From the NCBI GenBank assembly GCA_043718025.1, contig JAYSWN010000172.1, positions 29,630 to 93,629 on the forward strand: 64,000 nt of DNA, written 5' to 3'. The notes beneath the pieces are model-generated. The model was given only the letters and a program-made list of their open reading frames with translations, did not search any database and was not told the origin of the DNA. Positions 8,153 through 60,685 of the stretch are shown in pieces; positions within the stretch are counted from its first letter, which is position 1, and every line of letters starts with the position of its first letter. The DNA comes from Pseudomonadota bacterium. Lineage in GTDB: Bacteria; Bdellovibrionota; FAC87; UBA2466. The translations under genes were made by a program, and so were the position numbers.

Positions 8153-8440
8153 TTAACCGACGATTCCGAGGATCTCATCCTCGCGCATCATCAAATACTC
8201 ATCACCATCCACCTTCACCTCAGTGCCGGAATACTTTCCGAAGAGGATTTTGTCCCCTTTTTTCACTTCGAGAGGCACGACTTTTCCATCGTCCAGAATC
8301 TTGCCGCTACCTACGGCAACAACTTCACCCTCTTGTGGTTTTTCCTTAGCGGTATCTGGAATAATGATTCCGCCCTTGGTGGTTTCTTCTTCATTCAAGC
8401 GACGCACGATTACTCGATCGCGCAATGGCTTTATCTTCAT
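8153..8440 (-). CDS. groS: Co-chaperonin GroES (Hsp10)
   Basis: [39 protein letters not shown] 8440 is preceded by AGGAG at 7 nt. The GTG at 8446 in the ORF track is less likely. Confidence 0.9.
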
Positions 8441-8773
8441 ATTCACACTCCTAATTAAGTTACGTTAGACTAGCGCCGCCCCACCCCCCGAAGGACTGGT
8501 GAGCTATTCTCTTTAAGCTCTTCAGGGTGAAGACAACGTTATAGTTAAAACATTGAACGTTGTTTTAGGGATTCCCGCGCCAAGGTCAAGTAAATTTATT
8601 TATTTCCAAGCCATATCAAGGGTTTAAGGATTTCATGGCCAGCCCCAGTTTTGACTTCTTTTTCAGCGTTCCCAAATAAGAAAGCGTCGGAAGGCGCCTC
8701 CGACAAAAATCTTTGCGCAGCACGGCAATTAGGCCGTTCAGCGCCATTTAAATTTAGAGAGAAGGAGCCTTTT

Positions 8774-9265
8774 ATGATGCTTTTTAAAAACGACCGAAAC
8801 TGGGACCCCTTTAAAGAGTGGGAGCAATTTTTTACCAATACGGCTGCCCGTCAAGCGCGGCAGAGCCCGGCCTATGAGTCGCCACGCTACGCAGTTCAGG
8901 AGAAGGAAGATGGCTTTATTCTTAGCCTAGATGTGCCAGGAGTGCGTAAGGAAGACATTCAGATTGAGAGCAAAGGGCGCACCCTTTCGGTCACGGCCAA
9001 GCGTAAAGCGGCCCACACCGAGGGCGAAGCCTCCGAAGAGTCGACGTTTTCCTACCACGCCAGCTTCGAACTACCTGAAGCGGTGCAGATGGACGGGGCC
9101 GAGGCGTCTTACCAAGACGGAGTGCTGTGCCTGGCCCTGCCAAAAGTGAAAGAGGCCACTACGCGGGCCATTAAGGTAACGGACGGTCGTGGCGAGTTTT
9201 TCGGAAAACTCGTTCAAGGCTTTAAGAAAAAGATCCCAGAAGTAAAAACGGAAGCCAAAGCCTAA
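8774..9265 (+). CDS. Small heat shock protein, Hsp20/alpha-crystallin family
   Basis: Alpha-crystallin core YAVQEKEDGFILSLDVPGV..IESKGRTLSVTA..GVLCLALPK. ATG 8774 is preceded by GAGAAGGAG. Divergent from groES. Confidence 0.85.
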   Translation: MMLFKNDRNWDPFKEWEQFFTNTAARQARQSPAYESPRYAVQEKEDGFILSLDVPGVRKEDIQIESKGRTLSVTAKRKAAHTEGEASEESTFSYHASFELPEAVQMDGAEASYQDGVLCLALPKVKEATTRAIKVTDGRGEFFGKLVQGFKKKIPEVKTEAKA

Positions 9266-9445: not shown

Positions 9446-10609
9446 GTGTTCAGGTCTTCATTTACTGTCTCAATAAAAGCTCAGGGCCTTACCCTTGGCG
9501 TTTGCCGGTCACGCGTGCCTGGCACCTTAGAAGTGTTTGTCGATGGTCCGGTGAAAAGGGCTGAACTGCTGCGCGTCACCGTAGAGGGAACTAACGCTAC
9601 GGGGCAGCAGGCCTTTCCCCCGTTGAGCTACACTTTTACCCCCTCAATCGATGCCCCTGCCGCCGCTGCTCTCGAACTTTCATTGCCGTTCAAAGACTTT
9701 TTAGTTGGCAAAGAGAAGTCGACCCACGGGCTGCTAAGAATTCAGTTTTATGTAGATGGGGCCCAGCCGGTTTCGGCGCTGCTGCCGGTAGAAAGCTTTT
9801 TGCGTCTTTACCGCGCTAAAGGAAAAGCGGCAGCGGACTCATTGAGTTGGCATGGCTTGGCGTTGATCGACCACAAAGAAGTGGCCGCATTATCGCCGCT
9901 CAGTTTAAAAGCGCGCTCGGATCAAAGACGGGAAGAGATTGAGGCAGCTCGCCTTAAGGCCGTGGAAGAGGCCAAGGCAAAAGAGGCGGCTCGTTTGGCC
10001 GCCGCCAAAGCGGCGGAAGAGGCGCGCGCCAAGAGTGCGGTCGGAGCTTCGGCCGCCACTTCGGCCCCCGTCGACAAATCAAAACCCACCTTGGCCGGCG
10101 CTAAAACGCTGCTGATCTACGGATCTTCGACCGGCAACACCACGGATGTGGCGGAAATGATCAAAGCAGAATTGGGCGATAGCGTTGATGCGGTAAAAAA
10201 CATTACCGACTTGAGCCTTTTAGATTTTGGCATTCCGGAAAGATTCATTCTCGGGGTGCCCACCTGGCACATTGGCGAGATGCAAGATGACTGGGCCTCG
10301 ATATTGCCTGACTTTGATAAATCGACGATAAGCTTGGCGGGAAAAAAACTTGCGGTCTTTGGCTTGGGCGATGGCAAGGGCTACCCTGACTCGTACGTGG
10401 ACGCGATGCAGGAGTTGGCCGAAAAATTCGAGAAAAAAGGGGCCAAGCTGGTGGGGTTGTGGCCAACCGAAGGTTATGAATTCAAAAAGTCAAAAGCCAT
10501 TCGCGGCAATAAATTCGTAGGCCTGGTGATCGATGTAGAGAACCAAGACGAACTGAGCGAACGCCGAGTTAAAGAGTGGTGCGCGCAGCTTAAGAACGAA
10601 CTATTCTAA
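9446..10609 (+). CDS. Fusion protein: unknown N-terminal domain (about 190 aa), Ala/Lys/Glu-rich linker, C-terminal long-chain flavodoxin
   Basis: C-terminus LLIYGSSTGNTTDVAEMI..LAVFGLGDGKGYPDSYVDA..FVGLVIDVENQ is a flavodoxin (FldA-like). GTG start is preceded by AGGAG. The N-terminal domain is not recognised. Confidence 0.7.
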   Translation: MFRSSFTVSIKAQGLTLGVCRSRVPGTLEVFVDGPVKRAELLRVTVEGTNATGQQAFPPLSYTFTPSIDAPAAAALELSLPFKDFLVGKEKSTHGLLRIQFYVDGAQPVSALLPVESFLRLYRAKGKAAADSLSWHGLALIDHKEVAALSPLSLKARSDQRREEIEAARLKAVEEAKAKEAARLAAAKAAEEARAKSAVGASAATSAPVDKSKPTLAGAKTLLIYGSSTGNTTDVAEMIKAELGDSVDAVKNITDLSLLDFGIPERFILGVPTWHIGEMQDDWASILPDFDKSTISLAGKKLAVFGLGDGKGYPDSYVDAMQELAEKFEKKGAKLVGLWPTEGYEFKKSKAIRGNKFVGLVIDVENQDELSERRVKEWCAQLKNELF

Positions 10610-45485: not shown

Positions 45486-45680
45486 ATGTGCGCTGAGAAT
45501 GCAAAGTCAAAACTGAACAAGACTCTGGACAGCTTCGTGGACTTTGGCCCCGACGCCTCACTTTACGACATCGGCATGGCCGCCCCCTCCGAGCAAGAAG
45601 CCCAACGCCGAATCCGCAATATCGTCAAACAGATGGAAGAATTGAACCGCCGCATCGATAACCTGCTTAACTCCCGCTAA
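45486..45680 (+). CDS. Hypothetical small protein (64 aa) with a coiled-coil-like C-terminus
   Basis: ATG with GAGGGA RBS at 7 nt. Sits between nadD and queC. Confidence 0.4.
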   Translation: MCAENAKSKLNKTLDSFVDFGPDASLYDIGMAAPSEQEAQRRIRNIVKQMEELNRRIDNLLNSR

Positions 45681-46451: not shown

Positions 46452-46989
46452 TCAATCCGAAATCACTTACGACGGCACCCAGTTGGCCCCGCATTGGATT
46501 TATCGGAAATTCGACTTACTGGGTAACGCCGTGGTGGCCTTTGTCGGCCCGGCGACGGTAACGCTTGAACACATGGTAGATCTCGCCGACGTAAAAAAGC
46601 AGGCGCCAATCTACAGCCCAAAAATGCTACATTTTCTGGCCGAGTTTTTTATCGATTCGTTCGATCAAGGAATTTTGCTGCAGCATCTTTTTGTCGCCAA
46701 CGTCTACGAATGGCTTTGGGAAAAATCCATCAAGGGCTTATCCCGTAAAGGAAATGACATCTACGTTGATGGCAAAAAACTGAGCGTCAGCGTTTGCACC
46801 AAGTCTACGGTTTCGATCTTGATTCATTACGCGGCCAACATTGAAACCGAAGGCACGCCGGTACCCACTAAAGGATTGCGCGAACTCGATATCGATCCCC
46901 TAATCATGGCCCACGCGGTGATTCGGCGGTTTAGGGATGAACTGCTCGTCGTGCAAGCGGCCCGCGCCAAAGCGCTTCCGCGTCTGTAA
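46423..46989 (+). CDS. Conserved-looking hypothetical protein overlapping the queC 3' end
   Basis: About 188 aa ORF in a different frame, overlapping queC by about 29 nt. GGAG upstream of ATG 46423. No radical-SAM or QueD motifs. Confidence 0.5.
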   Translation: MPPFQTLVFDQSEITYDGTQLAPHWIYRKFDLLGNAVVAFVGPATVTLEHMVDLADVKKQAPIYSPKMLHFLAEFFIDSFDQGILLQHLFVANVYEWLWEKSIKGLSRKGNDIYVDGKKLSVSVCTKSTVSILIHYAANIETEGTPVPTKGLRELDIDPLIMAHAVIRRFRDELLVVQAARAKALPRL

Positions 46990-48046
46990 AATAGCCTTCG
47001 CCCCGCTCCCACACTCTTTTTGAAAACAGATTGGTTAGTGGGTAGCCGAAAGCGCCGATCAATTCGCTTGTGGTTTGCAGCGCCCCTTCCACCAGTTTAG
47101 GGTAGGCGCGACCCGTGGCCGCGTACGCCCGCGAGTAGTGTAGCGCCTTGCCGGTTTTAAAAAAACTGACGTAACGAATCCACAGGGTATCCACTACGGT
47201 CTGCCGTAGCGAAAACTCTCCCGCTCGCCATTGATCAAAAAGCGACGCCCCTAAACTAATGGCGGTCATGGCGTTGCGGCCGGCATTTTTATCGCCCATA
47301 CAAGAGAGGGCGCCGAGACTGGTCATGAGAATCGAATTCCACGTCATTAGGTGAGTGAACTCCGGATCGGCCCAGGCTTTTTTCCACACCGCTTTGGTGA
47401 AGAGATCTTTCTTGAGAAAGGTCCAAAAGCTCTTGTTTCCAACCGGTGAAAATTTTTCCCAGTTTACCACTACGGCGCCGAGTGCCGAGACGAGAGAGCT
47501 AATTCCCAAGAGCAATGCGGTTTCGCCAGCGCAAGTTTGAAAGGAGGGGCGTTCGAAGTAGGCATCAATCTCGGCGATGATCCGCGGGTCGGGCTTTGGC
47601 AGTTCGTCAGAAAAAGAATTGAGGGGTGGCTCCTCGCCACCGCCGCCACCCTGCCCACCACCATGGCCAAAGTTTGCAACATCCGGCACGTCGCCTTGAA
47701 AGGCCCTTATGGCCTGATCGAGACTCTCGAGCAGCTCGCTTTTTTTGTCCGCCGAAAGAAATTTTGCGGCTTCCACTCTTTCGCCAAGCACTTTTCGCAG
47801 CACTCGCCCCAACCCATGGCGAAGCCCACTGCCCGGAATTCCGATTTGGCCGGGAAATTTTTTCTCGAGCGTTTCGATAAGCAGCAGAGGATCGCGTGGC
47901 GCTACCGCACTTTTGTTCCACAGCTCTGAGAGTGCGCCCATGGCCTCTAGTTTGTAATCACAAGCCGGCGGCTCTGCCGCCACGGAGGCGCTAGCCATCA
48001 TAAAAAATATGCCAAAGCAGAATAATTGAAACAAGCACCCCCCCAT
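46931..48046 (-). CDS. Hypothetical secreted protein
   Basis: Signal peptide MGGCLFQLFCFGIFFMMASASVAA. Gly-rich linker. No domain recognised. Confidence 0.45.
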   Translation of the reverse strand: MGGCLFQLFCFGIFFMMASASVAAEPPACDYKLEAMGALSELWNKSAVAPRDPLLLIETLEKKFPGQIGIPGSGLRHGLGRVLRKVLGERVEAAKFLSADKKSELLESLDQAIRAFQGDVPDVANFGHGGGQGGGGGEEPPLNSFSDELPKPDPRIIAEIDAYFERPSFQTCAGETALLLGISSLVSALGAVVVNWEKFSPVGNKSFWTFLKKDLFTKAVWKKAWADPEFTHLMTWNSILMTSLGALSCMGDKNAGRNAMTAISLGASLFDQWRAGEFSLRQTVVDTLWIRYVSFFKTGKALHYSRAYAATGRAYPKLVEGALQTTSELIGAFGYPLTNLFSKRVWERGEGYFTDAEALWRGPLARRAVHP

Positions 48047-48312: not shown

Positions 48313-48388
48313 GTCCCCATCGTCTAGAGGCCTAGGACGACGCCCTTTCACGGCGTAGACACGAGTTCGAATCTCGTTGGGGACGCCA
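48313..48388 (+). tRNA. tRNA-Glu (anticodon UUC)
   Basis: 76 nt cloverleaf. Acceptor GTCCCCA/TGGGGAC. Anticodon loop CTTTCAC. T-loop GTTCGAATC. CCA end encoded. Near-identical in form to canonical bacterial tRNA-Glu. Confidence 0.9.
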
Positions 48389-48619
48389 ATTCATTCCGCG
48401 AGTTTTAACCCGTTAAACTTCAATAGTTTGAAAAAATTAAACGACACGAGTTCGAGTCCTGCTTCGGGACTTTAAGTCGTGTCGTAAGGACCGCGCTACC
48501 TAGACTCAGTAGCTCCACGGGAGTTCAATAAAGTTTGGCCCTGGCCTCAGGCTAGCTATCGAAATAGCTCACGACAAAGGCTTGTTCCCGATCGCAACCC
48601 TTTTGGGGGAAGGGAGCAA

Positions 48620-49792
48620 CTACTTGCGCGGAAAGTACAGCACGGCGTCGAAGTCGTTCCAATGCGACGCCCGATTTTGTTTGGCGGCCCGCTCGGGAAG
48701 ACCTCGCAAATCCCACGATGAGGGGGGATAGGAGACCAAAAACTTGCTATCCGCCCCGGGCAAAAAGCCGAAGGCCGCCATCTCGGGCTTGTAGATGGCC
48801 CAGGTGCAATCGGGAGGAGTCAATTCGTTCAGGACATGCTCGACCGGCGGCCGGAGGATCTGCACGGTCTTCGTTTTGATTTTCTTCTCCGCGACCAGCA
48901 CCTGGACGGGAACGGGCATTCGGGTACCCGGAATTCTCGACGGCGCCACGTGGTTCTGCCCGACAATGAAGAGGCCCTTCGCCTTCGGATCCTTTTCCAG
49001 CACCCCTACCATATTGTCGGCCATGGTTTCGTTTCGGTGCGCCATCCCGGTAAATTCGTTGCCCTCGTTGCGCCAGTCCCCCACCTCCCGGTCTACACAC
49101 ACGATCTTAAGCCCCAGCTCCTTGGCCGCCCGGTACATCGGCTCCGACGCTTTTCCTGCGGAAGAGAACTGGCTCTTGGCTAACTCGTCGAAGGTCATTT
49201 TGCCGACGAGATAATTATCAATCGCCGCCTGCATCCCCTTTCCGGCCGACATTTCAAGAAAGAGGTACTTCAACCCTCCCTTGGTTTTCTCCTTCAAGGT
49301 CTTCATGATGTCGCCGTAGAGGTCCTTGCCGTTCATATCCGGATGCTTTTCTCCGAGAACAAAGAGCTGGGTCTCGTCGTTGGACAGCTTATCCAATACC
49401 GCGTCTGGCGTCATTCCCGCTTCAATCTGTTTACGCAGATAGCGCTCGCGAATCTTGCAATAGGAGGCGACGAACCCCGGCTTGGCGTAGTTCTTTTGCA
49501 GGAAGGTGTTCCAAAACACGTCCTTCAGCTCGAACTCTTCCATCGTGGAGCGAATCTCCTTGCGCCAATCGCTCTCCGGGAGGTCCGCCCGAAGCTTGGC
49601 CATCCATTTGTCGGTCTCACAAATCTTCTGAAAAAACTGCGGCATTTTCTCTTCGGGGATTACCGGAAAGAACCGGGGCGTTTGGCCGTGGTCCTCGGCA
49701 CTGGCCAGAGGACCGAATGCAAAGCCAATCAACAAGAGAAGTGACGAAAAATGTCCGATTGCTAGTCTGGTAAACAGTCGCGAATTCCACAT
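48620..49792 (-). CDS. ChaN/Tiki/GumN superfamily-like secreted protein (possible haem-binding or protease-like)
   Basis: Signal peptide. LFVLGEKHPD (GxxH-like) near the N-terminus and FIVGQNHV near the C-terminus resemble Tiki/ChaN motifs. Weak assignment. Confidence 0.45.
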   Translation of the reverse strand: MWNSRLFTRLAIGHFSSLLLLIGFAFGPLASAEDHGQTPRFFPVIPEEKMPQFFQKICETDKWMAKLRADLPESDWRKEIRSTMEEFELKDVFWNTFLQKNYAKPGFVASYCKIRERYLRKQIEAGMTPDAVLDKLSNDETQLFVLGEKHPDMNGKDLYGDIMKTLKEKTKGGLKYLFLEMSAGKGMQAAIDNYLVGKMTFDELAKSQFSSAGKASEPMYRAAKELGLKIVCVDREVGDWRNEGNEFTGMAHRNETMADNMVGVLEKDPKAKGLFIVGQNHVAPSRIPGTRMPVPVQVLVAEKKIKTKTVQILRPPVEHVLNELTPPDCTWAIYKPEMAAFGFLPGADSKFLVSYPPSSWDLRGLPERAAKQNRASHWNDFDAVLYFPRK

Positions 49793-49860
49793 TGGTTAGT
49801 TACCTACTTCAACTAAAGAGCTGCATAAAATCCGAAGATGGATAATGCAAAGGGACGGCC

Positions 49861-50028
49861 ATGTCCGAGCTGTGGATATTGAAGAAACATTCGGTAACCA
49901 AAAAAATCACCAGGCGAGAAGTCTTTAGGGCAAACGCCTTGAGCTATGCGTTACTCTTTCTCATTCTTGCCGTGACCTTACTCAGAGAGTTGCGTCACTG
50001 ACGGGGATGCCTATTTCCAGTCCTGGAT
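49861..50028 (+). CDS. Candidate small membrane protein (55 aa), not in the ORF track
   Basis: ATG with AAGGGA upstream. C-terminal hydrophobic helix ALSYALLFLILAVTLL. Opposite strand to the flanking genes. Confidence 0.2.
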
Positions 50029-50036
50029 GAGCTTCA

Positions 50037-50579
50037 TTAGCGAGACACTAACCCTTTTACAACGGCTCGCTCGACCGCTTCCGTCTCAGTGCAGCCGAGC
50101 CTCTTTGCGAACTCCTTAAGTTTTCGGGCCACCTCCGGTTTCAAACGGAAAGTCTTCGTGATCTTTTTCTTTCCGAATTCCTTTACCCGTCCGTCAGGTA
50201 GGGGCAGTTTTACCCACACTTTGATTTTCTCGTAGGGCACACCCCATAGGGGTTCCCCCTTCTCCTCCGCATTTTTGAGTCTTTCGACAGTTGCATAAAG
50301 CTCTTCGTGTCTAGTTGCATCGAGATCGAAGTGCCTTGGCAAACGCAAGACAGCAGCAGGAAGAACTTCCAGTATGCGCGGTTCGACATTCATTCCGGCC
50401 CAAATGGCATCCAGAATCGTTAATCGCTTATTTGGCAAAAGAAGTAGGTCCTGATTCGACCGGAGAAATCCCTTAGCCACGAGAAACCCCATCGTCTCAA
50501 GATATCGGCGATCGTGCCGACGCTTTCGGTCTCTCTTAGCCGCTTGAGTGATTCTTCTAACTAAATTTTTGTTATTCAT
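50037..50579 (-). CDS. Hypothetical protein with C-terminal ribbon-helix-helix (CopG/Arc-like) module
   Basis: C-terminal KTFRLKPEVARKLKEFAKRLGCTETEAVERAV fits the RHH beta-alpha-alpha pattern. N-terminal 140 aa is basic and unrecognised. Confidence 0.5.
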   Translation of the reverse strand: MNNKNLVRRITQAAKRDRKRRHDRRYLETMGFLVAKGFLRSNQDLLLLPNKRLTILDAIWAGMNVEPRILEVLPAAVLRLPRHFDLDATRHEELYATVERLKNAEEKGEPLWGVPYEKIKVWVKLPLPDGRVKEFGKKKITKTFRLKPEVARKLKEFAKRLGCTETEAVERAVVKGLVSR

Positions 50580-50940
50580 AAATGATTTTCTGTTTAAAAA
50601 AAGAAAAACTGCTTATAGCACTCGCGTTGCTAATGCTCTCTCAACCTGTCGTTGCGGTGGGTTGGGGGGATTGTGTAAATTGGCTTCGTAGGGTGAGGGC
50701 AGACCGGGGAATACACAGATTATGATACCAATGAACGGCGATGTCGTTATCGAGGAGCCGATGGGACTATAAGCGACGCTCCAAAGTATTATAGACCCGA
50801 GGGCGGATACATTCTCGATCGTGATGCTGATGGAGCCGACTGCTATCTCCCTCTCCCCGTCGCTCCCGATGAGAAGTGAGTTTCTCTTAACGCTGCTTTT
50901 CCTTAGTTTGTAACGGATACCTTTTTCCTCTTTTTCCGTT

Positions 50941-52428
50941 TTAGAAAGACGCAAAGGCTTCTAGCAGCTTGGCACACGTAACAATTACCCCTGCGCGAAC
51001 AGCACCGCTCGTAGCCCCTTCTCGGAGTGGCCGTAAAACCGGGGGGTTTTTCTCACTTTTAACGCTAAAAAGTGCAACTGCCGTGTTTAACCCCCAAAAA
51101 AAAGGTGATGGGCTCTCCAAAATACCCACGCCGGGAATCAACCGATCAACGGCGCCCGCGGCCCCCATAAGAGCGCATTGAGTGGCAAACCGTGTGGTCA
51201 GCCGACCCAGTCTTCTCAGACCCCGCTCTCCAAGCTCCCGCTGATGGCGTGATTCCATGACGAACTCTTGCCTCTGCCTTTCTAGCTCTTCTTGATAGCG
51301 TCGGTGCTGGTACTTATCGGGGTTTAGGAGATCGTCTTTTGCCTGGACCAATTGTTTAAATTCTTTTGGTCGTGCGGAGGGGCCATCCGCTGGAAACTGG
51401 CTAACCCAATGGTGAAAGGCGGTTTTGATCTCTTTCTCCGTCAATTCGCCAGGGCCCGCGATGCCCAGGATCTTACGCGGTTCTTTAGATGAAAAAATGG
51501 GCGGTAACAAAAAGATCTCTCTTTGGTTGAGCTCACTCACCTTTTTGAACCACGGATTTACTTCGTAAAACTCAGCCAATCGTTTAGCCGCTCTTTTCTT
51601 TTCGGTGGCATAGGCCTCAGCAAAAAGTGCACCTATCTGAGGAGCCTCTAATCTTTCGTAGGTGGCTTTTAAACCTTGAGCTGGTTCATCAAGGTAGTGT
51701 TCGGGATCAGCGCTCATCCGGTGCAAAAACCCCTGAACTTCGATAATGGAAAGGGCAAAGTCCCTGCGGTTAGCCAATAGGTACGTGTTAATTAGCATCT
51801 CTTCGGCAAGGGCATTGGACTCTAAGGCTACCACGGCTTCGACTCTCTCCTTTAACTCGCTGGTGGTAAGGGGTCGATCCAAATGGAGATCCGTCTGGAG
51901 GAAATTCAATGGGGACACTTTTCTCTCCGCGCTGGCTCTGGCGGAGTCGCCTGACACCTCTCGTCTTCTCTTCTCAATGAGATAGTGAGCAAACTCATGA
52001 AGTAGCACGCCACGGGTCGAATCTTCCCTGAAAACAATCAAATCTTTATCAGCCATAGGTCGCTGGGTTTGACCCCATCGACCCTGATCGTCCAACGTTA
52101 CGGCAAAACTCTGAGCCGCCACATACATCCCTTCGGCCCCTCCGGTATCAAGAATATTTCCAAAATACAGTGCATCAGCTGAATCCTTTTGTGTGTTTTT
52201 TTTCGAGGTGCCCGGACGGCGCGTGGCCAAGGTCGCCACTCCGTATTCTTCTTGAATTATCCTGCGCATTTCGTCTGTGCTCTTGGCTTGCGCCACTCTC
52301 ACCATTGCCTGGCCATCGAACGATGGGGAGTCGGTTTTGACAGTGGGGGGCGCTGCGTGAGCCTTGAGGGTTAGGCTAAGACCCAGATAAACAGAGAGAA
52401 AACAAATTGTCCAACTGGCTCTGTGCAT
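50941..52428 (-). CDS. Secreted HExxH-motif protein (putative zinc metallopeptidase-like)
   Basis: Signal peptide. LLHEFAHYLI motif. Otherwise unrecognised. C-terminal hydrophobic segment. Confidence 0.5.
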   Translation of the reverse strand: MHRASWTICFLSVYLGLSLTLKAHAAPPTVKTDSPSFDGQAMVRVAQAKSTDEMRRIIQEEYGVATLATRRPGTSKKNTQKDSADALYFGNILDTGGAEGMYVAAQSFAVTLDDQGRWGQTQRPMADKDLIVFREDSTRGVLLHEFAHYLIEKRRREVSGDSARASAERKVSPLNFLQTDLHLDRPLTTSELKERVEAVVALESNALAEEMLINTYLLANRRDFALSIIEVQGFLHRMSADPEHYLDEPAQGLKATYERLEAPQIGALFAEAYATEKKRAAKRLAEFYEVNPWFKKVSELNQREIFLLPPIFSSKEPRKILGIAGPGELTEKEIKTAFHHWVSQFPADGPSARPKEFKQLVQAKDDLLNPDKYQHRRYQEELERQRQEFVMESRHQRELGERGLRRLGRLTTRFATQCALMGAAGAVDRLIPGVGILESPSPFFWGLNTAVALFSVKSEKNPPVLRPLREGATSGAVRAGVIVTCAKLLEAFASF

Positions 52429-52435
52429 GACCTAG

Positions 52436-52947
52436 CTACTGCCTGCAAGACAAAGGCCGGAAAGACCCAAAGTGTTGCTGCAGAAACCGTAGTTTTTTTT
52501 CGGCCTTTGGGGTCACATTCGGTAAGCTGTTTTCGCTGTCCTGTTTTCCCAAAGCGAGACGAAGAAGCAGCGAAGTATCCAAGGGGGGAAAGCCAATTTC
52601 TGCGACAACAATTTTCCCTTTCCAATCGGCGCGGCCAAAGAGGCAATCGGGCGCCGCGTATACCAACGGGGCTGCGACCCCTCCGTCCGGAGAAAAGGCG
52701 GTGTAGGGAATGCCGAACACCGAAAAAGAGTTTGCCCCTAAGTGAAGGGCAGCCTCTTCCGCTTGCCAGTGGGTAACCGGTACCGATTCACGCCGTACGT
52801 TGGATAAACCAAAGTCCTCAAGCTGGGAAAAGATAAAATCTTCATTGGCTTTGCCCGCCGGACTGCCCGGACGGCGCGAGCCAAGTTTCGCTTGAAACTC
52901 AATCCAACGAAATAACTCCTCATTACAAAATGGATCGGTGTTGGACA
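52436..52947 (-). CDS. Hypothetical protein with PA-domain-like segment, possibly a truncated peptidase N-terminus
   Basis: WKGKIVVAEIGFPP resembles a PA-domain core. No catalytic domain or signal peptide. ATG 52947, or GTG 52984. Confidence 0.35.
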
Positions 52948-53039
52948 TAGCCCTGCCTAATACGATTAACGGGTCGGTAAGCACAGAAAAAGGCCTCTCC
53001 TCGATAGACGCATCGGCACAGTTGGTCTACTTATGAAAA

Positions 53040-53999
53040 ATGAGCACATTAAAGGTGGCCAGTTTAGTTCTGTTCGTCTGTTTTACTCTTCGCGGGGAAG
53101 ATGAGGCTCCGTTTTGTTATCGGCTGCTCGGTGAAAAGGGGGAGGCTTTGGACTATTCCACGGTTGTCTCCCGCTTGTCGCCGGACTGGCTTGACCATCA
53201 CCTTGTGGGCAGCAAGGAAAAGGCGTTGGCGGTTTACCCCGCGGCGGCCTACCTCGACGGAATTTTGGCGGCTATGATGAACCAGCCCGAGCGCGCCCGG
53301 CATGACACTATCGTATTGGAAAATGTGGAGATCCCCTCGGCGCTTCCCTTGCTTCCCGCGCGCAAGGAAAAACCACCGGCCGAGGCCACGATCAAAACCA
53401 CCCTTGTCGCCGATGCCACGGGCTACCGCTTTTCCATCGCGAGCCGCGGCGAGCATATGAAGGGGCAAGCCTCCTTTTCCGGCGCCTTCGCTGCGTTTCC
53501 TGCGCTTCACTTAAAGGACGGGGTCTGGACGGAACTTCCCCCGGGTGTTTTGTACGCTGATCTAGAAAAACGAGGCCTACCGTACGGAGAAACGTTTCGT
53601 CTGGTTGGCAAGGTGGTGGTGACCGGAGTGACTTCGGCAGGACAAATCGAGCCGCACCAATCGCTCAATTTTTCTCAGCACTTTATTCACCCGACAATTA
53701 CCGACAGCGCTCTGCACACGGTGGCCGCCATTCTCGTGGCCAACCCGCGGGAGTGGGAAATTCCGGAACAGTTTCGAAACTCCATTGCCTTGCCGGTGGG
53801 CTTCGATCGCGTTCAGGCCCCAACCAAAAAAGCGCACCAGCTTCGGGGCGTGTTTACCACCGAGGCTAAAATCACCGAGGTAAAAACCCATACTGAGGGG
53901 GACATGAGGGTGACCGTAAAATACGATCTGCTTTTGCGCGATGCCGATGGCACGGTGGTACTTCAAATCACCGGGGGCCGGCTCCTGTTTCGGGGATAG
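53040..53999 (+). CDS. Standalone polyketide-synthase-type dehydratase (PS-DH, hot-dog fold)-like protein with signal peptide
   Basis: HHLVGSKEKALAVYPAAAYLD (HxxxGxxxxP motif), GLPYGETF (YGP-like motif) and HPTITDSALH (DxxxH/Q-like). N-terminal hydrophobic signal. Confidence 0.5.
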   Translation: MSTLKVASLVLFVCFTLRGEDEAPFCYRLLGEKGEALDYSTVVSRLSPDWLDHHLVGSKEKALAVYPAAAYLDGILAAMMNQPERARHDTIVLENVEIPSALPLLPARKEKPPAEATIKTTLVADATGYRFSIASRGEHMKGQASFSGAFAAFPALHLKDGVWTELPPGVLYADLEKRGLPYGETFRLVGKVVVTGVTSAGQIEPHQSLNFSQHFIHPTITDSALHTVAAILVANPREWEIPEQFRNSIALPVGFDRVQAPTKKAHQLRGVFTTEAKITEVKTHTEGDMRVTVKYDLLLRDADGTVVLQITGGRLLFRG

Positions 54000-54363
54000 G
54001 TTTAGGCCGGCCCTAGCCGCTGGCACGCCGCTGCGCATGGGGCACATCGGCGACTCCATCACTAACGCGGCCAATGCTGTTCAGTTTGCCTTTAGCGCCG
54101 CTGATTACATTTCAATATGTTGCAGAAGAAAAATGACAGGGTTGCGAATCCTGTAACGGACGCGGGTACCCAGATAAAACCCGAACTCAATAGACTTCTT
54201 TAAGAAGGTCATGGGCCGCGACAAAGATAAGATGGCAGTTCGTGAATTGTCCCTCATCAAAGCGAAGAGCCTAAAACATGACTGATACCATGCTCATTGC
54301 TCGCTTCGCGTTGTCGCTAAGGTTGCGATTGGTTTCGTGTTTCCTGTGGAAACTTTCTAGGGG

Positions 54364-54849
54364 CTAAGGCAACTTTACCACCGGGGCATTGCTCACCACT
54401 CGACCGCCACCGGTGTAGGCGATCCATTGGTGGGCCGAATCAAAGGTGGCGGTTAAAGTGTCGCCTTTGGGACCTTTTGAATAAATTATAAAATACGGTC
54501 CAAAAGTGGAGTCATCGCCCGTCGCATAGCCATAGGTCTGATTTACCAAATCCGTATTAAAAGGGTCCGGCATCACTTGTGAAATCATCTGCGGGGTGGC
54601 GTTGACCAGGGCAGAGTGAATATTGGGAGGGTAAACATTTGTATTGTTGCGCCAATATGACGTAACGGCGGTCTTAATGGACGATAGCTCTCCGTCCACT
54701 TTGGTGAGCTGGCCCTCGGCAATCATGGCCCGTATATTCGGCAGCACTACGCTTAAAAGGGCGGCGATCATCCCCATGGTCAGCAACAACTCAATGAGGG
54801 TGAAGCCGGCCCGGCCTATCCCTAGCCTTTTTTTGCAGATCTTTCCCAT
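54364..54849 (-). CDS. Type IV pilin / T2SS pseudopilin-like protein
   Basis: Prepilin leader plus GFTLIELLLTMGMIAALLSV N-methylation motif. Start chosen at MGKICKKRLG. Confidence 0.7.
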   Translation of the reverse strand: MGKICKKRLGIGRAGFTLIELLLTMGMIAALLSVVLPNIRAMIAEGQLTKVDGELSSIKTAVTSYWRNNTNVYPPNIHSALVNATPQMISQVMPDPFNTDLVNQTYGYATGDDSTFGPYFIIYSKGPKGDTLTATFDSAHQWIAYTGGGRVVSNAPVVKLP

Positions 54850-54931
54850 AGTGGTGTTCTTGATTCGGCTTCTCCCGGTAAAAACTTTAGTCACTCAAGT
54901 TCGACGCGCGGCAAACCGATAAGAAGGGAAA

Positions 54932-55792
54932 GTGGGCGAAAACATGGCCAAACGAACGAACGCAAAACGAAAAAAAACGGTAGCAAAGTCCAGCCCGCAA
55001 AGGGCCAACACCAGGAATGAGGTGGCTCTTTCGCTTGTGAATACCTCCGATTCGATTGCACGACCAAATACAAAACCGCGTTTCACCGATACCGCGGTCT
55101 CGATGGCCGACGATCCGAATCGGCCCGCCCATTTTCCAGAATTGATTTCATGGCCCGGCTTAGCCCTCGTCTGCTGGGTTTTTACAGCGCTAGTGGGGAC
55201 CCTGGGAATTACGGGACTCTTTGGCGGGCCGAAAGCCTATTCGGGCATGGGCACTGGCTTAGTTCCCATCGCCCATAGTGAAGCCGTGCTGTTTATTATT
55301 TTAGGCTTAAGCCTCGTGCTCTTCGTTTACGGCGTCACTCGAAAATTTGCCAGATCAGCCGTGGTTACCGCTACGCTGCTCTGTTCTGTTTTTTCGATTT
55401 TGAAATTGGTTGAGCACTTTGGTCACGCGTGGTTCGGAATTGAAAACCTCTTCAACCTACGCATAACCTATTTTAAAAACTTTCTTGTCGGAGCCATGTC
55501 GCCGGTTTCTGCAGCGTTGTTCATCGCAATTAGCGTTTCCGTTATTCTATTAGTGATCGTCGAAGATCAACGCAAAACTGCCATTCGGTGGGCCATGCGC
55601 CTAACCAGCGCTTGCGCCATTGCCACCGTGCTTATCGTGCTCAGCTACTGTTTTGGAAATCCACTGTTGTACGCAGGTAAAATAACCCCGGTTTCACTCA
55701 CGGCCGGCATCGCTTTTTTGTTTCTGGAGGCCGGCATCTTCATCGCTATCGGCCCGACTCAATACCCTATCCAGTTCTCAATTAGAAAATAA
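54932..55792 (+). CDS. Hypothetical polytopic membrane protein with basic N-terminal tail
   Basis: 6 to 8 predicted TM helices after a Lys/Arg-rich N-terminus. Confidence 0.45.
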   Translation: MGENMAKRTNAKRKKTVAKSSPQRANTRNEVALSLVNTSDSIARPNTKPRFTDTAVSMADDPNRPAHFPELISWPGLALVCWVFTALVGTLGITGLFGGPKAYSGMGTGLVPIAHSEAVLFIILGLSLVLFVYGVTRKFARSAVVTATLLCSVFSILKLVEHFGHAWFGIENLFNLRITYFKNFLVGAMSPVSAALFIAISVSVILLVIVEDQRKTAIRWAMRLTSACAIATVLIVLSYCFGNPLLYAGKITPVSLTAGIAFLFLEAGIFIAIGPTQYPIQFSIRK

Positions 55793-55807
55793 CAAACCAA
55801 AACGCAT

Positions 55808-56149
55808 TCAGTTTTCAAACTCTTCGAGCGCGGTTTCTAGCTCTTCGTTGCCGACCAGCTGAACGGTGGTCACGCCCTTGAACGGCAAGATTCTAAACCC
55901 ATCGAATACTAGGTGTTCGCCGTTTTCCACCTCACTGTCGTCCTCAATCGCTTCAACTTCGATCGAAGCCAGCGGCAGCAAGGCTTCGCGCGACTCAAAC
56001 ACCACCGCCTCTTCCCGGCTCTGGGTGTAGCCATTAAAACCGGCCACGGCCTCGGGATCGAACGACGAAATGTAACAGGGCTGGCTATCCCCATTGCGAT
56101 AGAGTTCTAAGATAAAGCCTTCAATTTCAGTCTGCGTCTCTTGTTCCAT
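55808..56149 (-). CDS. Hypothetical acidic protein
   Basis: 113 aa, Glu/Asp-rich. No motif recognised. Confidence 0.4.
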   Translation of the reverse strand: MEQETQTEIEGFILELYRNGDSQPCYISSFDPEAVAGFNGYTQSREEAVVFESREALLPLASIEVEAIEDDSEVENGEHLVFDGFRILPFKGVTTVQLVGNEELETALEEFEN

Positions 56150-56290
56150 AGGGGCTGGATCTAAACCATTTCCCGTTTTAAGTGAAGCGTCCGTTCAAAC
56201 TCCCCCACGAATACCGGCCTAGTCGCCTGATTATTAAGCCAAAACCCGAATCCCCCCCAACTTGGGGCCCAGACGTGCTAATTTCGCCGC

Positions 56291-56683
56291 ATGAACTTTG
56301 ACTCCGAATCCGAAGCTGAAATCGTCTTTGATTCCACCCGAAACGAATTTACGGGCTCATTGCGCGAATCCATCGCCCCGCCGGAGCCAACTGAGCCACT
56401 TTGCCTCATTAGCTACGAAGTGACGTTTATTTTGCTGGGAGATGGCCCCCATTGCCGCCCCAGCTTCTGGAAAAGCTACCGCCGAGAATTGGCACTCAAT
56501 CAAAAGACCAATTACAACAACTACCACGTCAGCGTTTGCCGCCACCAATTGGTCTCATTACGCATGCGCCTAGATCAACCCGTGTACTTTAAAAACAATC
56601 GCATCACCACCGAGAATCAGCTCGACCCCTACACTATTAAGGCGCTTAACGACCCGCATTTCGCCCATCAGACGGCCCTTTAA
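56291..56683 (+). CDS. Hypothetical protein
   Basis: 130 aa ORF divergent from 55808..56149. Confidence 0.4.
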   Translation: MNFDSESEAEIVFDSTRNEFTGSLRESIAPPEPTEPLCLISYEVTFILLGDGPHCRPSFWKSYRRELALNQKTNYNNYHVSVCRHQLVSLRMRLDQPVYFKNNRITTENQLDPYTIKALNDPHFAHQTAL

Positions 56684-56712
56684 GACCAAACCCTAAAGCA
56701 AAGCCATCGCGC

Positions 56713-57726
56713 TTACACCTCGCAGACCGCAATTTTTAGGGGCGGGCGGCCATCGAACGACGGAAAGTCAGCCTCCGGCTCTATGATTTGCAGATCACGA
56801 ATCGGCCGACCCGCCTTTTCGGCGCAACGCCTTAGCGTATTAATCCAGCTCTCAAGATCCACCACGGCCGCGTGGTTGGTGGCCAAAATCCGTCCGCCAT
56901 TAGGGCGAGTAGCCAGCAAGGCTGGTTTAAACAAACTGGCGTAGTCACCCACAACATCGACTGCGCCGAAGGCACTTTTTGACCAAGCCGGCGGATCAAG
57001 AAAGACGAGATCAAACTCACGAGGCTCAAACTTGGTCACCCGGTTTCCCCGCCCCCCGCGCCCACCGATCGGTAAACCGGCGATCTGGCGCACGAAGGGC
57101 AAACAATCTTCGTTGATGGTGCGGACTTGACGGTCGGTAAGCTGATTAAGAAGCGCGTTGCGCCGGCCCACTTCAAGACTCGAAGCCGCAAAATCCACAT
57201 TCCACACTTCGCTGGCGCCCACCACCGCCGCGCAAATACCGGCGCTGCACGTATAGGAAAACAAATTGAGCATGGACAAGCCCTTACCAACCTGACGAAG
57301 AAACCGACGCCCGGCGCGTAAGTCGAGAAACAGCCAAGGGTCAAGGCCGCGGTGCCGCGAGCTAATCAGGTAGCGAACGCCAAACTCTTTGCACTCGGTT
57401 TCAGCCAACGCTTCGGCAATGGGTTTGTGCCATTCGTCAAACGCTTGGGCCGCGTTTTTATTGCGGTGGTTGTAGGCCAACGTAAAGTCATCAGGCACTA
57501 TTTTGTGTAGGGCTTCTTCAACCTGACTCAGCTCGACGCTGGTGAGCGGATCGCGAAACGTTTGCACGAGAATCAAGGTGCCGTAGCGGTCAACGGTAAG
57601 CCCGGCGACGCCTTCGGTTATGCCGTGAAAAAGGCGGTAACAATCAGTGTCCTCGGCACGTAAGGCAGCTATTAGGGGCTCCCGCCGCCCGATCGCCGCT
57701 TCGAAATGGGATGAGAATGAATTCAT
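56713..57726 (-). CDS. Class I SAM-dependent RNA methyltransferase, RlmI/RlmK-like
   Basis: FSYTCSAGICAAVVGASEV and LDPPAWSK motifs. Start chosen at ATG 57726. The ORF track extends to 58011 and would overlap the SDR gene. Confidence 0.65.
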   Translation of the reverse strand: MNSFSSHFEAAIGRREPLIAALRAEDTDCYRLFHGITEGVAGLTVDRYGTLILVQTFRDPLTSVELSQVEEALHKIVPDDFTLAYNHRNKNAAQAFDEWHKPIAEALAETECKEFGVRYLISSRHRGLDPWLFLDLRAGRRFLRQVGKGLSMLNLFSYTCSAGICAAVVGASEVWNVDFAASSLEVGRRNALLNQLTDRQVRTINEDCLPFVRQIAGLPIGGRGGRGNRVTKFEPREFDLVFLDPPAWSKSAFGAVDVVGDYASLFKPALLATRPNGGRILATNHAAVVDLESWINTLRRCAEKAGRPIRDLQIIEPEADFPSFDGRPPLKIAVCEV

Positions 57727-57828
57727 GGCCACTAAAGACAATAAATTCGTTACCGGCGTCCAGAGAATTCGTATGAAAGGCAATGACACGTTTTCACAGA
57801 CTGGCCTAAAGTCAGCATGGGAGGCCCT

Positions 57829-58575
57829 ATGAAACTTGGCGGAAACACGATTCTTATCACCGGCGGCGGCAGCGGCATTGGGTTGGCTTTGGCAAAACGA
57901 TTCTTGGCGGCAGAGAGTGAAGTCATTTTGTGCGGGCGGCGCCAACAGACACTCGAGACCGCTAAGCGTGAGTGCCCTAAGTTTCACACTTTCGTTTGCG
58001 ACGTTAGCCAAGCCTCAGAGCGCGTGCGTCTCGCCCAAAGACTGACCAGCGACTTCCCCCGATTAAATGTGATTATCAACAATGCCGGCGTGCAGAACCG
58101 CCCCCCCTCGGTGCTGCAATCGCAAGAATGGAGCGATACCGAAAGGGAGATTGCCACCAATCTTTCGGCGCCCATCCACCTGGCCATGCTGTTCGCCCCC
58201 CACCTGGCGAAGCAGAAGGCGGCGGCCATCATTAACGTGACGTCGGGGTTGTCTTTTAGCCCGCTTGCTTTCATGCCGGTCTACTGCGCAACCAAAGCGG
58301 CGCTTCACTCTTTCACGCTGAGCCTGCGCCACCAACTGGTGAACACTTCGGTAAGCGTAATCGAAGTGGTGCCACCGGCCGTGCAGACCGACCTGGGAGG
58401 TAAAGGGCTACATGACTTTGGGGTGCCGCTTGAGGCCTTTGCCGATCACGCCGTGAAGGGGATTGCCAGCGGCGAGTTGGAGTTTGGCTATCAGCTTTCG
58501 GAAAAGGCGCGCCTAGCCTCACGCCAAGAGCTCGACGCCATATTCAAGGGCATGAATGCGGCCAATCAGCCGTAG
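57829..58575 (+). CDS. Short-chain dehydrogenase/reductase (SDR)
   Basis: TGGGSGIG Rossmann motif, NNAG, YxxxK (YCATKAA). GGGAGG RBS. Confidence 0.8.
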   Translation: MKLGGNTILITGGGSGIGLALAKRFLAAESEVILCGRRQQTLETAKRECPKFHTFVCDVSQASERVRLAQRLTSDFPRLNVIINNAGVQNRPPSVLQSQEWSDTEREIATNLSAPIHLAMLFAPHLAKQKAAAIINVTSGLSFSPLAFMPVYCATKAALHSFTLSLRHQLVNTSVSVIEVVPPAVQTDLGGKGLHDFGVPLEAFADHAVKGIASGELEFGYQLSEKARLASRQELDAIFKGMNAANQP

Positions 58576-58640
58576 TAATCATTAGTCTGCCGCCGACGCT
58601 AAAGTACGGCTAACTCTCAACGATCTGTTAGGATCAGTCT

Positions 58641-59519
58641 ATGACCTCCATCCACCACAGTTTCCATTTCGCGGTGCAACCCGCGGCCATTCGCTCGGCG
58701 CTTACCGAAGAAGCTCACCTGCGCAAGTGGTGGACCAAACACGCCTCGGTACAAAATGGCAAAGGCGTCTTTCGTTGGCCGGAGAATGATTGGTCAGTAG
58801 AGTTCACGATTGAACCGCCGGATGGCGGTCGAGAAGTCGTTTGGAGCTGCACCAAATCAAATATGCAGAACACTCACGCCTGGGAAGGTAGCCAGATTTC
58901 ATTTCGCCTAACCTCCGACGCCACCGGCACCAAGGTGGAATTCACGCAGTCTGAGTATCAAGATTCTGCCTGCCTCGAGGCCTGCGCCAACGACTGGAAC
59001 TATTTTCTGGGGACAAGCCTCAAAAATTATCTTGAGTCGGGTAAAGGCACTCCGTATCCGGAGGCGCACGACACCACTAAGCCAAGCTCAAGCCGTGAAG
59101 TGGTCACCACCCGAGTTTTTAATGTGTCACGCGAAGTTCTTTTCACCGCGTGGAGTGACCCCACCCATCTCATTGAATGGTGGGGGCCTAAAGGGTGCAC
59201 CAGCACTTTTCAGGAGTTTGATTTTAGGGCTCGGGGGTTGTGGCATTTCACGATTCAAACACCGAACGGCATCAACGTTGAAAACAAGTGCGTGTTCGTA
59301 GAAATTGCGCGACCCGAACGAATTGTATTTGAACATTTACAACCCGCCCCCAAATTTCAGGCCACTTGGACCCTTGAGCTGCACGGCAGTAAGACCAAAC
59401 TCACGTTTCGCATGAGATTTGAAACGCAGGAAGAGTGCGACAAAGTGAAAGTTTTGGTTAGTGACGCCAATGAGCAGATCTTCGATCGTTTAGAGGCTGA
59501 AGTGGTCAAGATGATGTAA
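58641..59519 (+). CDS. SRPBCC superfamily protein (tandem AHSA1/polyketide-cyclase-like domains)
   Basis: Two repeats with a W..K..W / TDPE..WW-like pattern typical of Aha1-like domains. Confidence 0.55.
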   Translation: MTSIHHSFHFAVQPAAIRSALTEEAHLRKWWTKHASVQNGKGVFRWPENDWSVEFTIEPPDGGREVVWSCTKSNMQNTHAWEGSQISFRLTSDATGTKVEFTQSEYQDSACLEACANDWNYFLGTSLKNYLESGKGTPYPEAHDTTKPSSSREVVTTRVFNVSREVLFTAWSDPTHLIEWWGPKGCTSTFQEFDFRARGLWHFTIQTPNGINVENKCVFVEIARPERIVFEHLQPAPKFQATWTLELHGSKTKLTFRMRFETQEECDKVKVLVSDANEQIFDRLEAEVVKMM

Positions 59520-59538
59520 TGAGCCGGCGGCTCATTTA

Positions 59539-60414
59539 TTACTGGCGCCAAGTTGCAATGCGACCCGCCAGATCAGGATCGGCAATCTCTTCACAAATCT
59601 GTTCGACCGCCTGCCTACCTGCGCCCCGCCACTCGATATCGCGCAATGACTCTTCAAGCGGTACATCAAAACGTAACCTTGCGAGTTGCTTATAAAGCGC
59701 CGCCTCTTTACGGCCCGCATTGAGACTATCGGCCAATGCTTCGGCCCCGCGAACGGCAACTTTCCAGTCGGCGGCTCGCTTCGGGATTTTTTCAATCGAG
59801 CCATAGGCGGCGAGAATGGTCGAGGCCGATTTCATTCCCCAACGCGTAATCCCCGGAATGCCGTCGGCTGAGTCACCCACCAAGGCCAGTAAATCGGCAA
59901 TGGCCGACGGCGGCACACCAAATTTTTTTATCACCCCCGCCTCGTCCAAAATAATTTTCTTCGAACGATCGTAGGCAACGATGGCTTTACCACTCACGCA
60001 TTGCGCCAAATCCTTATCGGGCGAACAGATAAGCACTTGCTCAACCTTTTTTAATGCCGAAAAGCGGGCGGCCCCGGTCGCCAGCGCATCGTCGGCTTCA
60101 AACTCCACCATCGACCACACCACGATGCCCAGTGCCGCCACGGCACGTTCTATCAGCTCAAATTGGCCGTAAAGCTCAGGGTCGATCCCGGCGCCGGTTT
60201 TGTAGCCACTAAAAAGTTTATTACGAAACGATTCAATCACGTGATCGAAAGCGCAGGCGACGTGAGTGACTTCACCGGTGCCGAGCCACGCGGCAAAACT
60301 TCGCACCATTGCTCGGGTGGCCCCCACTTCCCTGCCCGCCGCATTTTTTTTTGAGGGCGCGCCGAAATAGCAACGAAACAGTTCGTATGTACCGTCGATA
60401 AGATGAACTTGCAT
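59539..60414 (-). CDS. 5'-3' exonuclease / flap endonuclease (Xni/ExoIX-like)
   Basis: MQVHLIDGTYELFRCYF N-terminus, acidic metal-binding residues, H3TH-like region. Confidence 0.8.
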   Translation of the reverse strand: MQVHLIDGTYELFRCYFGAPSKKNAAGREVGATRAMVRSFAAWLGTGEVTHVACAFDHVIESFRNKLFSGYKTGAGIDPELYGQFELIERAVAALGIVVWSMVEFEADDALATGAARFSALKKVEQVLICSPDKDLAQCVSGKAIVAYDRSKKIILDEAGVIKKFGVPPSAIADLLALVGDSADGIPGITRWGMKSASTILAAYGSIEKIPKRAADWKVAVRGAEALADSLNAGRKEAALYKQLARLRFDVPLEESLRDIEWRGAGRQAVEQICEEIADPDLAGRIATWRQ

Positions 60415-60415
60415 A

Positions 60416-60685
60416 CTAGGTTTGGCTCTTTTTTTCAGCCAGGTAATTGAGATAGAGATCTTCCACTTTTTTTCTGGCCCAAGGGGTTCGGCGTAAAAAT
60501 TTTAAGCTAGAGCTGATGCTGGGGTCACTGTGGAAACAATTGATCTTCACCGCTTCACCCATGGTCTTCCAACCGAGTTGATCAACGAGTATTTTTAAAA
60601 TGGCTTCTAACGTCATTCCATCAAGCGGGTCTTTGGCGGTCTTTGGGCTCATAGTGATCTGGTGAGTTAGCTTTAGACCAATCAC
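60416..60685 (-). CDS. DUF2132 (VF530-like) family protein
   Basis: GMTLEAILKILVDQLGWKTMGEAVKINCFHSDPSISSSLKFLRRTPWARKKVEDLYL matches the conserved core of this family. Confidence 0.6.
   Translation of the reverse strand: MIGLKLTHQITMSPKTAKDPLDGMTLEAILKILVDQLGWKTMGEAVKINCFHSDPSISSSLKFLRRTPWARKKVEDLYLNYLAEKKSQT

Follow-up and report, generated by a model that had tools for sequence, protein, structure and literature searches.

tRNA-linked islands and their remnants

Genomic islands and prophages that were inserted into tRNA genes by tyrosine integrases have been catalogued in the Islander database (PMC4383910). Such elements enter the 3' part of the tRNA gene and restore it with their own sequence, leaving an intact tRNA at one end of the island and the displaced 3' fragment, in the form of a direct repeat, at the other. 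The locus described here consists of a tRNA-Glu(UUC) gene and the four minus-strand open reading frames (ORFs) that follow it, up to ~53.0 kb, in a 64,000-nucleotide stretch of contig JAYSWN010000172.1 (assembly GCA_043718025.1) from a member of the Bdellovibrionota; this stretch is referred to below as the window. The original prediction, made from the letters of this DNA, had suggested an old or decayed insertion that no longer carries an integrase, or else a small accessory islet. That idea gained support from a ~130-nt sequence shared with an island in the related contig L002, from empty sites in other relatives, from an integrase gene in the viral contig L018, and from the deviant composition of the segment between 49.8 and 52.4 kb. 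Taken as a whole, the locus is probably a decayed, integrase-less mobile islet at tRNA-Glu, with accreted cargo and a terminator palindrome.

Several features of Islander-type islands are recognizable at this locus, including the intact tRNA at one end of the islet, the displaced 3' fragment that forms a direct repeat in L002, the empty sites in relatives, and the integrase gene next to a tRNA fragment in L018. However, the window copy has neither a displaced fragment at its far end nor an integrase, two of the features that define these islands, and the islet is very small; the repeat is found in L002. Cis-mobilizable elements (CIMEs) and decayed integrase-less islets are known to arise by deletion or accretion, and an additional internal att-like (attachment site-like) copy is, as generally understood, what tandem accretion and deletion leave behind (reviewed in PMC5704250). 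Similarly to the CIMEs, the elements considered here are flanked by att sites (in L002), encode no recombination or transfer proteins, carry a small cargo, and contain an internal att-like copy. They differ from the CIMEs in that the window copy appears to have lost one end and that its internal att copy, located 54 nt from the tRNA, has apparently been remodelled into a palindrome. In Prochlorococcus, tycheposons and satellites reportedly occupy tRNA-linked hotspots as small cargo-carrying elements and leave partial tRNA copies behind. As far as their description goes, the tRNA-linked hotspot, the small cargo, and the partial tRNA copy have their counterparts here; the phylum is a different one, and the likeness is one of layout. 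The locus displays what a tRNA att site looks like after decay. The islet itself would be an ordinary kind of scar in a bacterial genome, and only its end module with the att-derived palindrome might prove to be something more.

Occupied and empty sites at tRNA-Glu

The tRNA-Glu gene (Table 1) is the only tRNA gene identified by ARAGORN in the entire window, and its sequence is identical in L002 and in L006 to L012. In L002, it is followed by a module of ~130 nt, ~3 kb of cargo, and a perfect copy of the last 31 nt of the tRNA, so that the insertion measures 3.2 kb and is flanked by perfect 31-nt direct repeats. The cargo, which comprises a ParE/RHH (ribbon-helix-helix) toxin-antitoxin pair and two secreted uncharacterized proteins, is unrelated to the genes in the window, and neither Pfam nor a phmmer search with the L018 integrase detected an integrase in this island. 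The sequence ctcctttagta that comes after the distal repeat of L002 is also found immediately after the tRNA in L006 and L009/L012, where the site is empty, and the DUF952 gene is located 2.3 kb past that repeat. By its sequence, L002 can be classed as a textbook repeat-bounded insertion without an integrase.

Empty sites were seen in six loci with the identical tRNA (L006, L008, and L009 to L012), which have other sequence directly after the CCA. In L009, L011, and L012, DUF952 is found ~100 nt after the tRNA; in L006 and L008, other sequence occupies this place. Upstream of the tRNA, the order Obg, CTP_transf_like (PF01467) nucleotidyltransferase, a small ORF, QueC, DUF366, a 371-aa protein, and tRNA-Glu has been kept in L002 and L008 to L012. 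Downstream, the relatives do not share the gene order of the window, and the 13-nt repeat that had drawn attention to this locus was found among them solely in L002, the one that has an island. The refutation that the original prediction had allowed for was thus not borne out.

The kind of enzyme that both islets lack is encoded by L018 (IMGVR_UViG_3300033067_001427), a 38-kb viral contig with no full tRNA. Its tyrosine integrase (positions 2232-3098; PF00589, E = 3e-23) has its 3' end facing a 48-nt fragment of the tRNA-Glu 3' end (positions 3650-3697), ~550 nt away, that holds the exact 31-mer. L018 is a candidate for a temperate phage of this lineage of the Bdellovibrionota, one that would integrate at the same attB. 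A metagenome scan by exact match to the 3' half of the tRNA, which covered exact matches alone, returned a single contig; the lineage is a rare one. The L002 island, the empty sites, and the integrase/att pair of L018 all argue for the 3' end of tRNA-Glu as an integration target, as had been supposed from the general behavior of tRNA genes. They identify tRNA-Glu(UUC) as a hotspot of integration in a lineage of the Bdellovibrionota that has hardly been sampled, and they provide the exact 31-nt att block.

Table 1. Features of the tRNA-Glu locus (positions in the window)
Feature	Position	Strand	Comments
tRNA-Glu(UUC)	48313..48388	+	Intact, with encoded CCA; ARAGORN and Rfam RF00005, 61 bits; putative chromosomal target (attB/attL side)
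att identity block, T arm to CCA	48358..48388	+	GACACGAGTTCGAATCTCGTTGGGGACGCCA; recurs perfectly at L002 13588-13618; exact block in the L018 fragment
Conserved tRNA-proximal module, putative element end, ~130 nt	48389..48520	.	Non-coding; shared with the L002 island
U-rich tract	48430..48440	-	UUAAUUUUUUC; on the minus strand, adjoins the 3' side of the hairpin; candidate tail of an intrinsic terminator
Imperfect palindrome, 19-7-19	48441..48485	.	ACGACACGAGTTCGAGTCC / tgcttcg / GGACTTTAAGTCGTGTCGT; arms of 19 nt, spacer of 7 nt, 84% complementary
Second copy of the att block, probably decayed	48443..48474	+	24/31, one gap; its first 13 nt are the originally reported repeat
ChaN/Tiki-superfamily-like protein, 390 aa	48620..49792	-	Signal-peptide-like N terminus; partial match to PF04187
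46-aa ORF	49861..50001	+	Hydrophobic C-terminal half; predicted as a gene in Logan contig L001; no family match
RHH-tailed protein, 180 aa	50037..50579	-	Conserved helical N-terminal domain and C-terminal ribbon-helix-helix; second gene of a two-gene module
Non-coding gap, 361 nt	50580..50940	.	Codon score of its longest ORF, -2.03, worst in the window
HExxH/J-domain protein, 495 aa	50941..52428	-	Signal-peptide-like N terminus, HExxH motif, degenerate J domain, hydrophobic Cys-containing tail
Peptidase-like ORF, 182 aa	52436..52984	-	Weak likeness to the N terminus of M28 aminopeptidases; ordinary codon use

A probable mobile-element end module with a second att copy

The original prediction rested on a 13-nt piece of the tRNA T arm, GACACGAGTTCGA, at positions 48358-48370 that recurs at 48443-48455. 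There are exactly two copies of this 13-mer in the window, even with one mismatch allowed, and two matches were reached in 0 of 100 shuffles. The similarity extends beyond the 13-mer: the two copies agree at 15 of 16 positions without a gap and, with a single 1-nt gap, at 24 of the 31 positions up to the tRNA 3' end. The second copy starts at the base at which the distal repeat of L002 starts (GACACGAG...) and can be followed along the att block up to GGGAC in the acceptor strand. It carries identical substitutions in both genomes, and in L002 it matches 25 of the 31 positions. Since it starts on the L002 distal-repeat base and is decayed in the same way in both genomes, it is therefore best interpreted as an old, decayed att block that travels within the tRNA-proximal end of the element. 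The copy does not mark the islet's far boundary: it lies 54 nt inside the element, counted from this end, and L002 has it in addition to the true 31-nt distal repeat. More generally, a short repeat of a tRNA fragment close to a tRNA gene need not mark an island boundary. Two other explanations of the repeat were discarded. Chance was ruled out by the shuffles and by a local-alignment scan, and a second, degenerate tRNA gene by ARAGORN and Rfam, which recognize just one tRNA, as well as by the similarity, which begins at the edge of the att block and not at any more 5' position.

The sequence common to the window and L002 begins right after the tRNA, at position 48389. The alignment of 48397-48516 with L002 positions 10427-10544 has 86.7% identity over 120 nt and includes the second att copy and the hairpin described below. 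L002 is the more distant relative, with protein identities to the window of 70% for DUF366, 73% for QueC, and 51% for the 371-aa neighbor of the tRNA; the respective values for L008 to L012 are 78%, 79 to 83%, and 58 to 59%. The module is thus retained at ~87% identity in a more distant relative and absent from closer ones, a distribution that is incongruent with relatedness and points to horizontal movement. No copies were found in viral contigs, phage genomes, or plasmids. A 17-mer match in the viral contig L020 turned out to belong to an unrelated coding sequence, and a tRNA D-arm-like fragment that had been suspected in the right arm of L002 was not confirmed. Judged by these comparisons, the segment 48389-48520 very probably represents the end of a mobile element that targets tRNA-Glu. 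The wider potential of the module lies in its being common to two integrase-less islets with unrelated cargo.

High conservation of this non-coding DNA and the strength of its plus-strand fold (z = -6.1) could also be expected of a native, vertically inherited part of the tRNA-Glu transcription unit, be it a trailer, a structure for processing or termination, or a small RNA, whose likeness to the T arm is incidental. This interpretation is hardly tenable, given that in L002 the module is part of the segment bounded by the 31-nt repeats, with the native flank resuming after the distal repeat. Furthermore, the module and its hairpin are absent from all six empty loci listed above, those of the closer relatives included, the plus strand has no U tract, and Rfam produced no match to the hairpin or the module, either at E <= 1 or, in a scan of the whole window, at the gathering score.

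The att-derived palindrome

The long imperfect hairpin that was originally reported to hold the repeat is a 19-7-19 palindrome whose 5' arm is the second copy of the att block. The first 19 nt of this copy are repeated in inverted orientation 7 nt farther on, with 16 of 19 positions agreeing as read from the sequence. The calculated fold energy is -27.9 kcal/mol (z = -6.1) for the plus strand and -20.9 kcal/mol (z = -3.1) for the minus strand. The hairpin has been kept in L002, which carries UUUUACUUUUU at the position of the U-rich tract of the window, and in both elements the gene next to it is on the minus strand. The hairpin and the minus-strand U tract most likely constitute an intrinsic terminator, which remains a candidate one by its sequence; it could be expected to stop minus-strand transcripts before they run, as antisense, into the tRNA. 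In agreement with this assignment, a stable stem-loop that precedes a U-rich tract also characterizes Rho-independent terminators, and in both elements this structure is found downstream of a minus-strand gene. The stem differs from that of a typical terminator: it has interruptions and a considerable length (19 positions), is located 135 nt past the stop codon, is not called in a scan with the terminator consensus, and folds more stably on the opposite strand.

The same palindrome has the layout (and the layout only) of a tyrosine-recombinase core site, in which inverted elements are separated by a spacer of 6 to 8 bp. It could therefore be a recombination site besides, or instead of, being a terminator: two inverted left half-sites of att with a 7-nt spacer, recognized by a helper integrase specific for tRNA-Glu that would mobilize integrase-less islets in trans. 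The arms do derive from the att block, the module is ~87% identical in two elements whose cargo is entirely different, neither of these elements has an integrase while a tRNA-Glu-specific one exists on L018, and integrase-less cis-mobilizable elements are known (PMC5704250). However, there are only two examples, the att arms of L018 show no sequence similarity to the module, and the copy in the window is left without another att site as a recombination partner. Such a function is the main alternative to a terminator and is quite unlikely. A related and still doubtful extension would have the end module define a family of integrase-less "satellite" islets in the Bdellovibrionota, with interchangeable small cargo such as secreted proteins and toxin-antitoxin pieces, a borrowed tRNA-Glu-specific tyrosine integrase that would carry them between distant hosts, and the palindrome as the cis site of that helper. 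The preferred interpretation of the palindrome as a terminator is used in the following sections.

Extent and decay of the proposed islet

The original prediction placed the limit of the islet at position 52984, a limit that found no support: the window contains no distal repeat anywhere, and a contig from the same sample is continuous across this position. Both att sites are present only in L002, and the window has attL plus the decayed internal copy. Local alignment of the window with the 31-mer joined to three kinds of native flank gave a best other score of 23 to 24, within the shuffle range of 19 to 27. The Logan contigs assembled from the same sample (SRR23617201) end and overlap exactly at 48359-48388, a 30-nt att block, and break again at 50627-50651, within the 361-nt gap. 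Several contexts of the att block within one sample would naturally produce a break there, and the two breaks suggest that these sequences do occur in more than one context, due to either strain polymorphism or a second copy. Contig L019 from this set spans ~50627-60426 without interruption, 52.4-53.0 kb included.

In composition, the most deviant part of the window is its 49.8-52.4 kb segment. Among all segments of equal length, 49793-52428 has the lowest GC content (0.498 versus 0.528 ± 0.013) and ranks in the top 0.8% by tetranucleotide distance. Codon scores are poor for the 180-aa RHH gene and for the HExxH gene (-1.75, with a GC content at third codon positions, GC3, of 0.516). Of the 48.6-53.0 kb region, for which a check of composition had been suggested, it is the middle part that deviates in this way; the amplitude is small, the ChaN-like gene deviates in the opposite direction, and the peptidase-like ORF is ordinary.

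The following sequence of events would account for these observations. A tyrosine integrase probably inserted a mobile element into the tRNA-Glu gene by site-specific recombination at its last 31 nt, and the sequence of the element restored the 3' end of the tRNA. As its tRNA-proximal end, the element would have brought in the conserved ~130-nt non-coding module with an older, decayed att block inside. The first 19 nt of this decayed copy would have been duplicated in inverted orientation, producing the 19-7-19 palindrome that today, together with the U tract, may serve as the terminator. A later deletion would have deprived the element of its integrase as well as of the distal arm and repeat. 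The 48.6-53.0 kb region would then be an accessory patchwork of two secreted-looking rare or orphan proteins, a torn RHH gene, and a possibly truncated peptidase-like ORF. Under this scenario, the islet in the window presumably entered in the same way as the L002 island, the genes from position 48520 to ~53.0 kb are likely to have arrived with the element, and a deletion is likely to have removed its distal end. Decay of the islet is indicated by the missing partner of the RHH gene and by the orphan status of the ChaN-like gene.

A number of observations weigh against this scenario. The 64-kb window contains no distal repeat of the tRNA 3' end (as a 16-mer with up to 3 mismatches) and, in a sensitive blastn search, nothing similar to the right arm of L002. 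As the original prediction had noted, it also contains no integrase, judging by Pfam searches with the ORFs from 46.4 to 64 kb and a six-frame phmmer search with the L018 integrase. The extent of the islet is left undefined because all three are missing. The native downstream genes of the relatives (DUF952 and others) are not found in the window either; therefore, as little as ~130 nt may be element-derived. The compositional shift amounts to just ~3% GC, and no gene in the window exceeds the GC3 of the ChaN-like gene (0.734), whose tetranucleotide deviation is in the top 1.6%. As for the hairpin, to the stronger plus-strand fold and the missing terminator call can be added that the module is known in two copies only, so that no covariation test is possible, and that the differences between these copies are all at unpaired or stem-end positions.

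Taken to their conclusion, these observations would mean that a deletion joined a ~130-nt stump of the element to the chromosome and that the four genes are native or independently acquired. The absence of a distal repeat, right arm, and integrase from the window fits such a history, as do the unbroken course of L019 through 52.4-53.0 kb, the ordinary codon use of the peptidase-like ORF, the codon score of the ChaN-like gene, which looks the best adapted of the four, and the varied contexts of the RHH homologues, which are not tied to tRNA-Glu. It fits less well with the location of the most deviant composition at 49.8-52.4 kb, with an orphan ChaN-like gene next to a member of a very rare HExxH family, with an RHH gene torn from a module of the kind found beside transposases and toxin-antitoxin genes, and with a minus-strand gene abutting the module in both known elements. 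On balance, a bare stump is the main rival history, a minor but by no means negligible possibility, and the mobile islet with accreted cargo is the interpretation followed below.

Genes of the proposed islet

The four minus-strand ORFs downstream of the tRNA are present as originally described (Table 1). Searches of the islet proteins against defense-system, phage, and NCBIfam profiles returned nothing but weak RHH-type matches. The wider potential of this cargo is in a rare HExxH/J-domain family that is predicted to be exported and in a widespread, uncharacterized two-gene RHH module.

The RHH-tailed protein, listed at first among the unusual, poorly characterized genes, is not a rarity and has 371 homologues, and its unusual feature is the absence of an otherwise constant partner. 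In all six loci examined (with five distinct homologues, as the L016 and L017 proteins are identical), a conserved first protein of 166 to 177 aa is encoded directly before an RHH-tailed protein of 175 to 188 aa, in a tight pair. Contexts of this two-gene module often include transposases or toxin-antitoxin genes. The partner has no match in Pfam, PDB, or PADLOC. The window alone has no partner gene, and its DNA similarity to the closest RHH homologue ends at position 50581. Immediately upstream of the RHH gene is the 361-nt gap, which is a real non-coding stretch with rare codons, as the original prediction had it. Searches of the gap for relics of the RHH partner, the neighboring genes, or the L002 cargo found none. 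Because the partner is gone without a trace and the similarity stops at 50581, this gap appears to be a rearrangement junction in the place expected for the partner gene. An exact 16-nt match with the L002 cargo at 50739-50754 did not extend at the protein level and was taken as chance. The N-terminal domain of the RHH protein, for which a helical structure is confidently predicted, has no PDB match. Profile searches had been recommended for this domain and for the HExxH protein, and in the latter case a J domain came to light. Within the Bdellovibrionota, the two-gene module is also encoded in L014 (9471-10555), L015 (9488-10558), L016 (2639-3707), L021 (3-803), and L022 (254-1329), and the partner proteins of L014 and L015 are 69% identical.

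The HExxH protein belongs to a family with only 9 other clusters among 1.84 billion representatives. Its residues H144, E145, and H148 are invariant across 8 members of the family (homologues P0128-P0135), which, along with the signal-peptide-like N terminus, supports the description of it as a secreted HExxH protein, export being predicted. A profile of the family matches DnaJ in PDB with E = 3.5e-10, and the Pfam DnaJ domain (PF00226) is recognized in 4 of the 8 members; the window protein taken by itself is below Pfam significance for this domain. Most homologues retain the HPD motif, which is replaced in the window protein by PAD (FPAD). A fold search with a structural model (predicted local distance difference test score, pLDDT, 76) found generic helical bundles only. 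The Hsp70 partners of J domains are cytoplasmic, and an exported J domain is odd for that reason. One could speculate that, in a predatory lineage, this protein acts inside the prey.

The ChaN/Tiki-like identity of the 390-aa protein holds in part: its match to PF04187 (E = 2.3e-8, 34.7 bits) exceeds the cut-off of 27.7 bits but is confined to residues 141-231, aligned with profile positions 8-101 of 213. A search of 5.8 billion proteins returned no homologues other than the protein itself, and there was no PDB match. The 182-aa ORF, initially labeled a PA-like fragment, does exist; the label relies just on a weak match to the N terminus of an M28 aminopeptidase (PDB entry 3tc8, E = 0.3, residues 19-70 only), and no match was found in Pfam, NCBIfam, or PHROG. 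This ORF may represent a truncated gene that borders the patchwork on its distal side. A candidate opposite-strand membrane peptide of 55 aa was not found at that length; the plus-strand ORFs are the 46-aa one listed in Table 1 and a second one of 47 aa (50582-50725).

A 15-nt exact direct repeat, TGCCCGGACGGCGCG, is found at 52209-52223 and 52864-52878, with 79% identity over 28 nt. One copy belongs to the part of the HExxH gene that encodes the N-terminal region, the other to the peptidase-like ORF; the encoded peptide is RRPG(T/S) in both cases. This repeat may be due to chance (with an estimated expectation of ~5% in 10 kb) or may be a trace of recombination at the distal side of the islet.

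Flanking genes

The 371-aa protein encoded directly upstream of tRNA-Glu (46931-48046, minus strand) has a Gly-rich linker, belongs to no Pfam family, and has just 5 homologues among 5.8 billion proteins; its place beside the tRNA is conserved. A DNA segment upstream of queC (45.5-45.7 kb), 80 to 88% identical to L002 and L004, was considered as a possible RNA element. It has no Rfam match and proved instead to be a small conserved ORF of ~64 aa (45487-45680, plus strand). In L002, the region between DUF366 and the 371-aa protein (6814-9044) encodes a 191-aa protein with a HEIGH motif and a GH15 glucoamylase-like protein. This gene pair is absent from the window and from L008 to L012 and represents a second indel in the same neighborhood.

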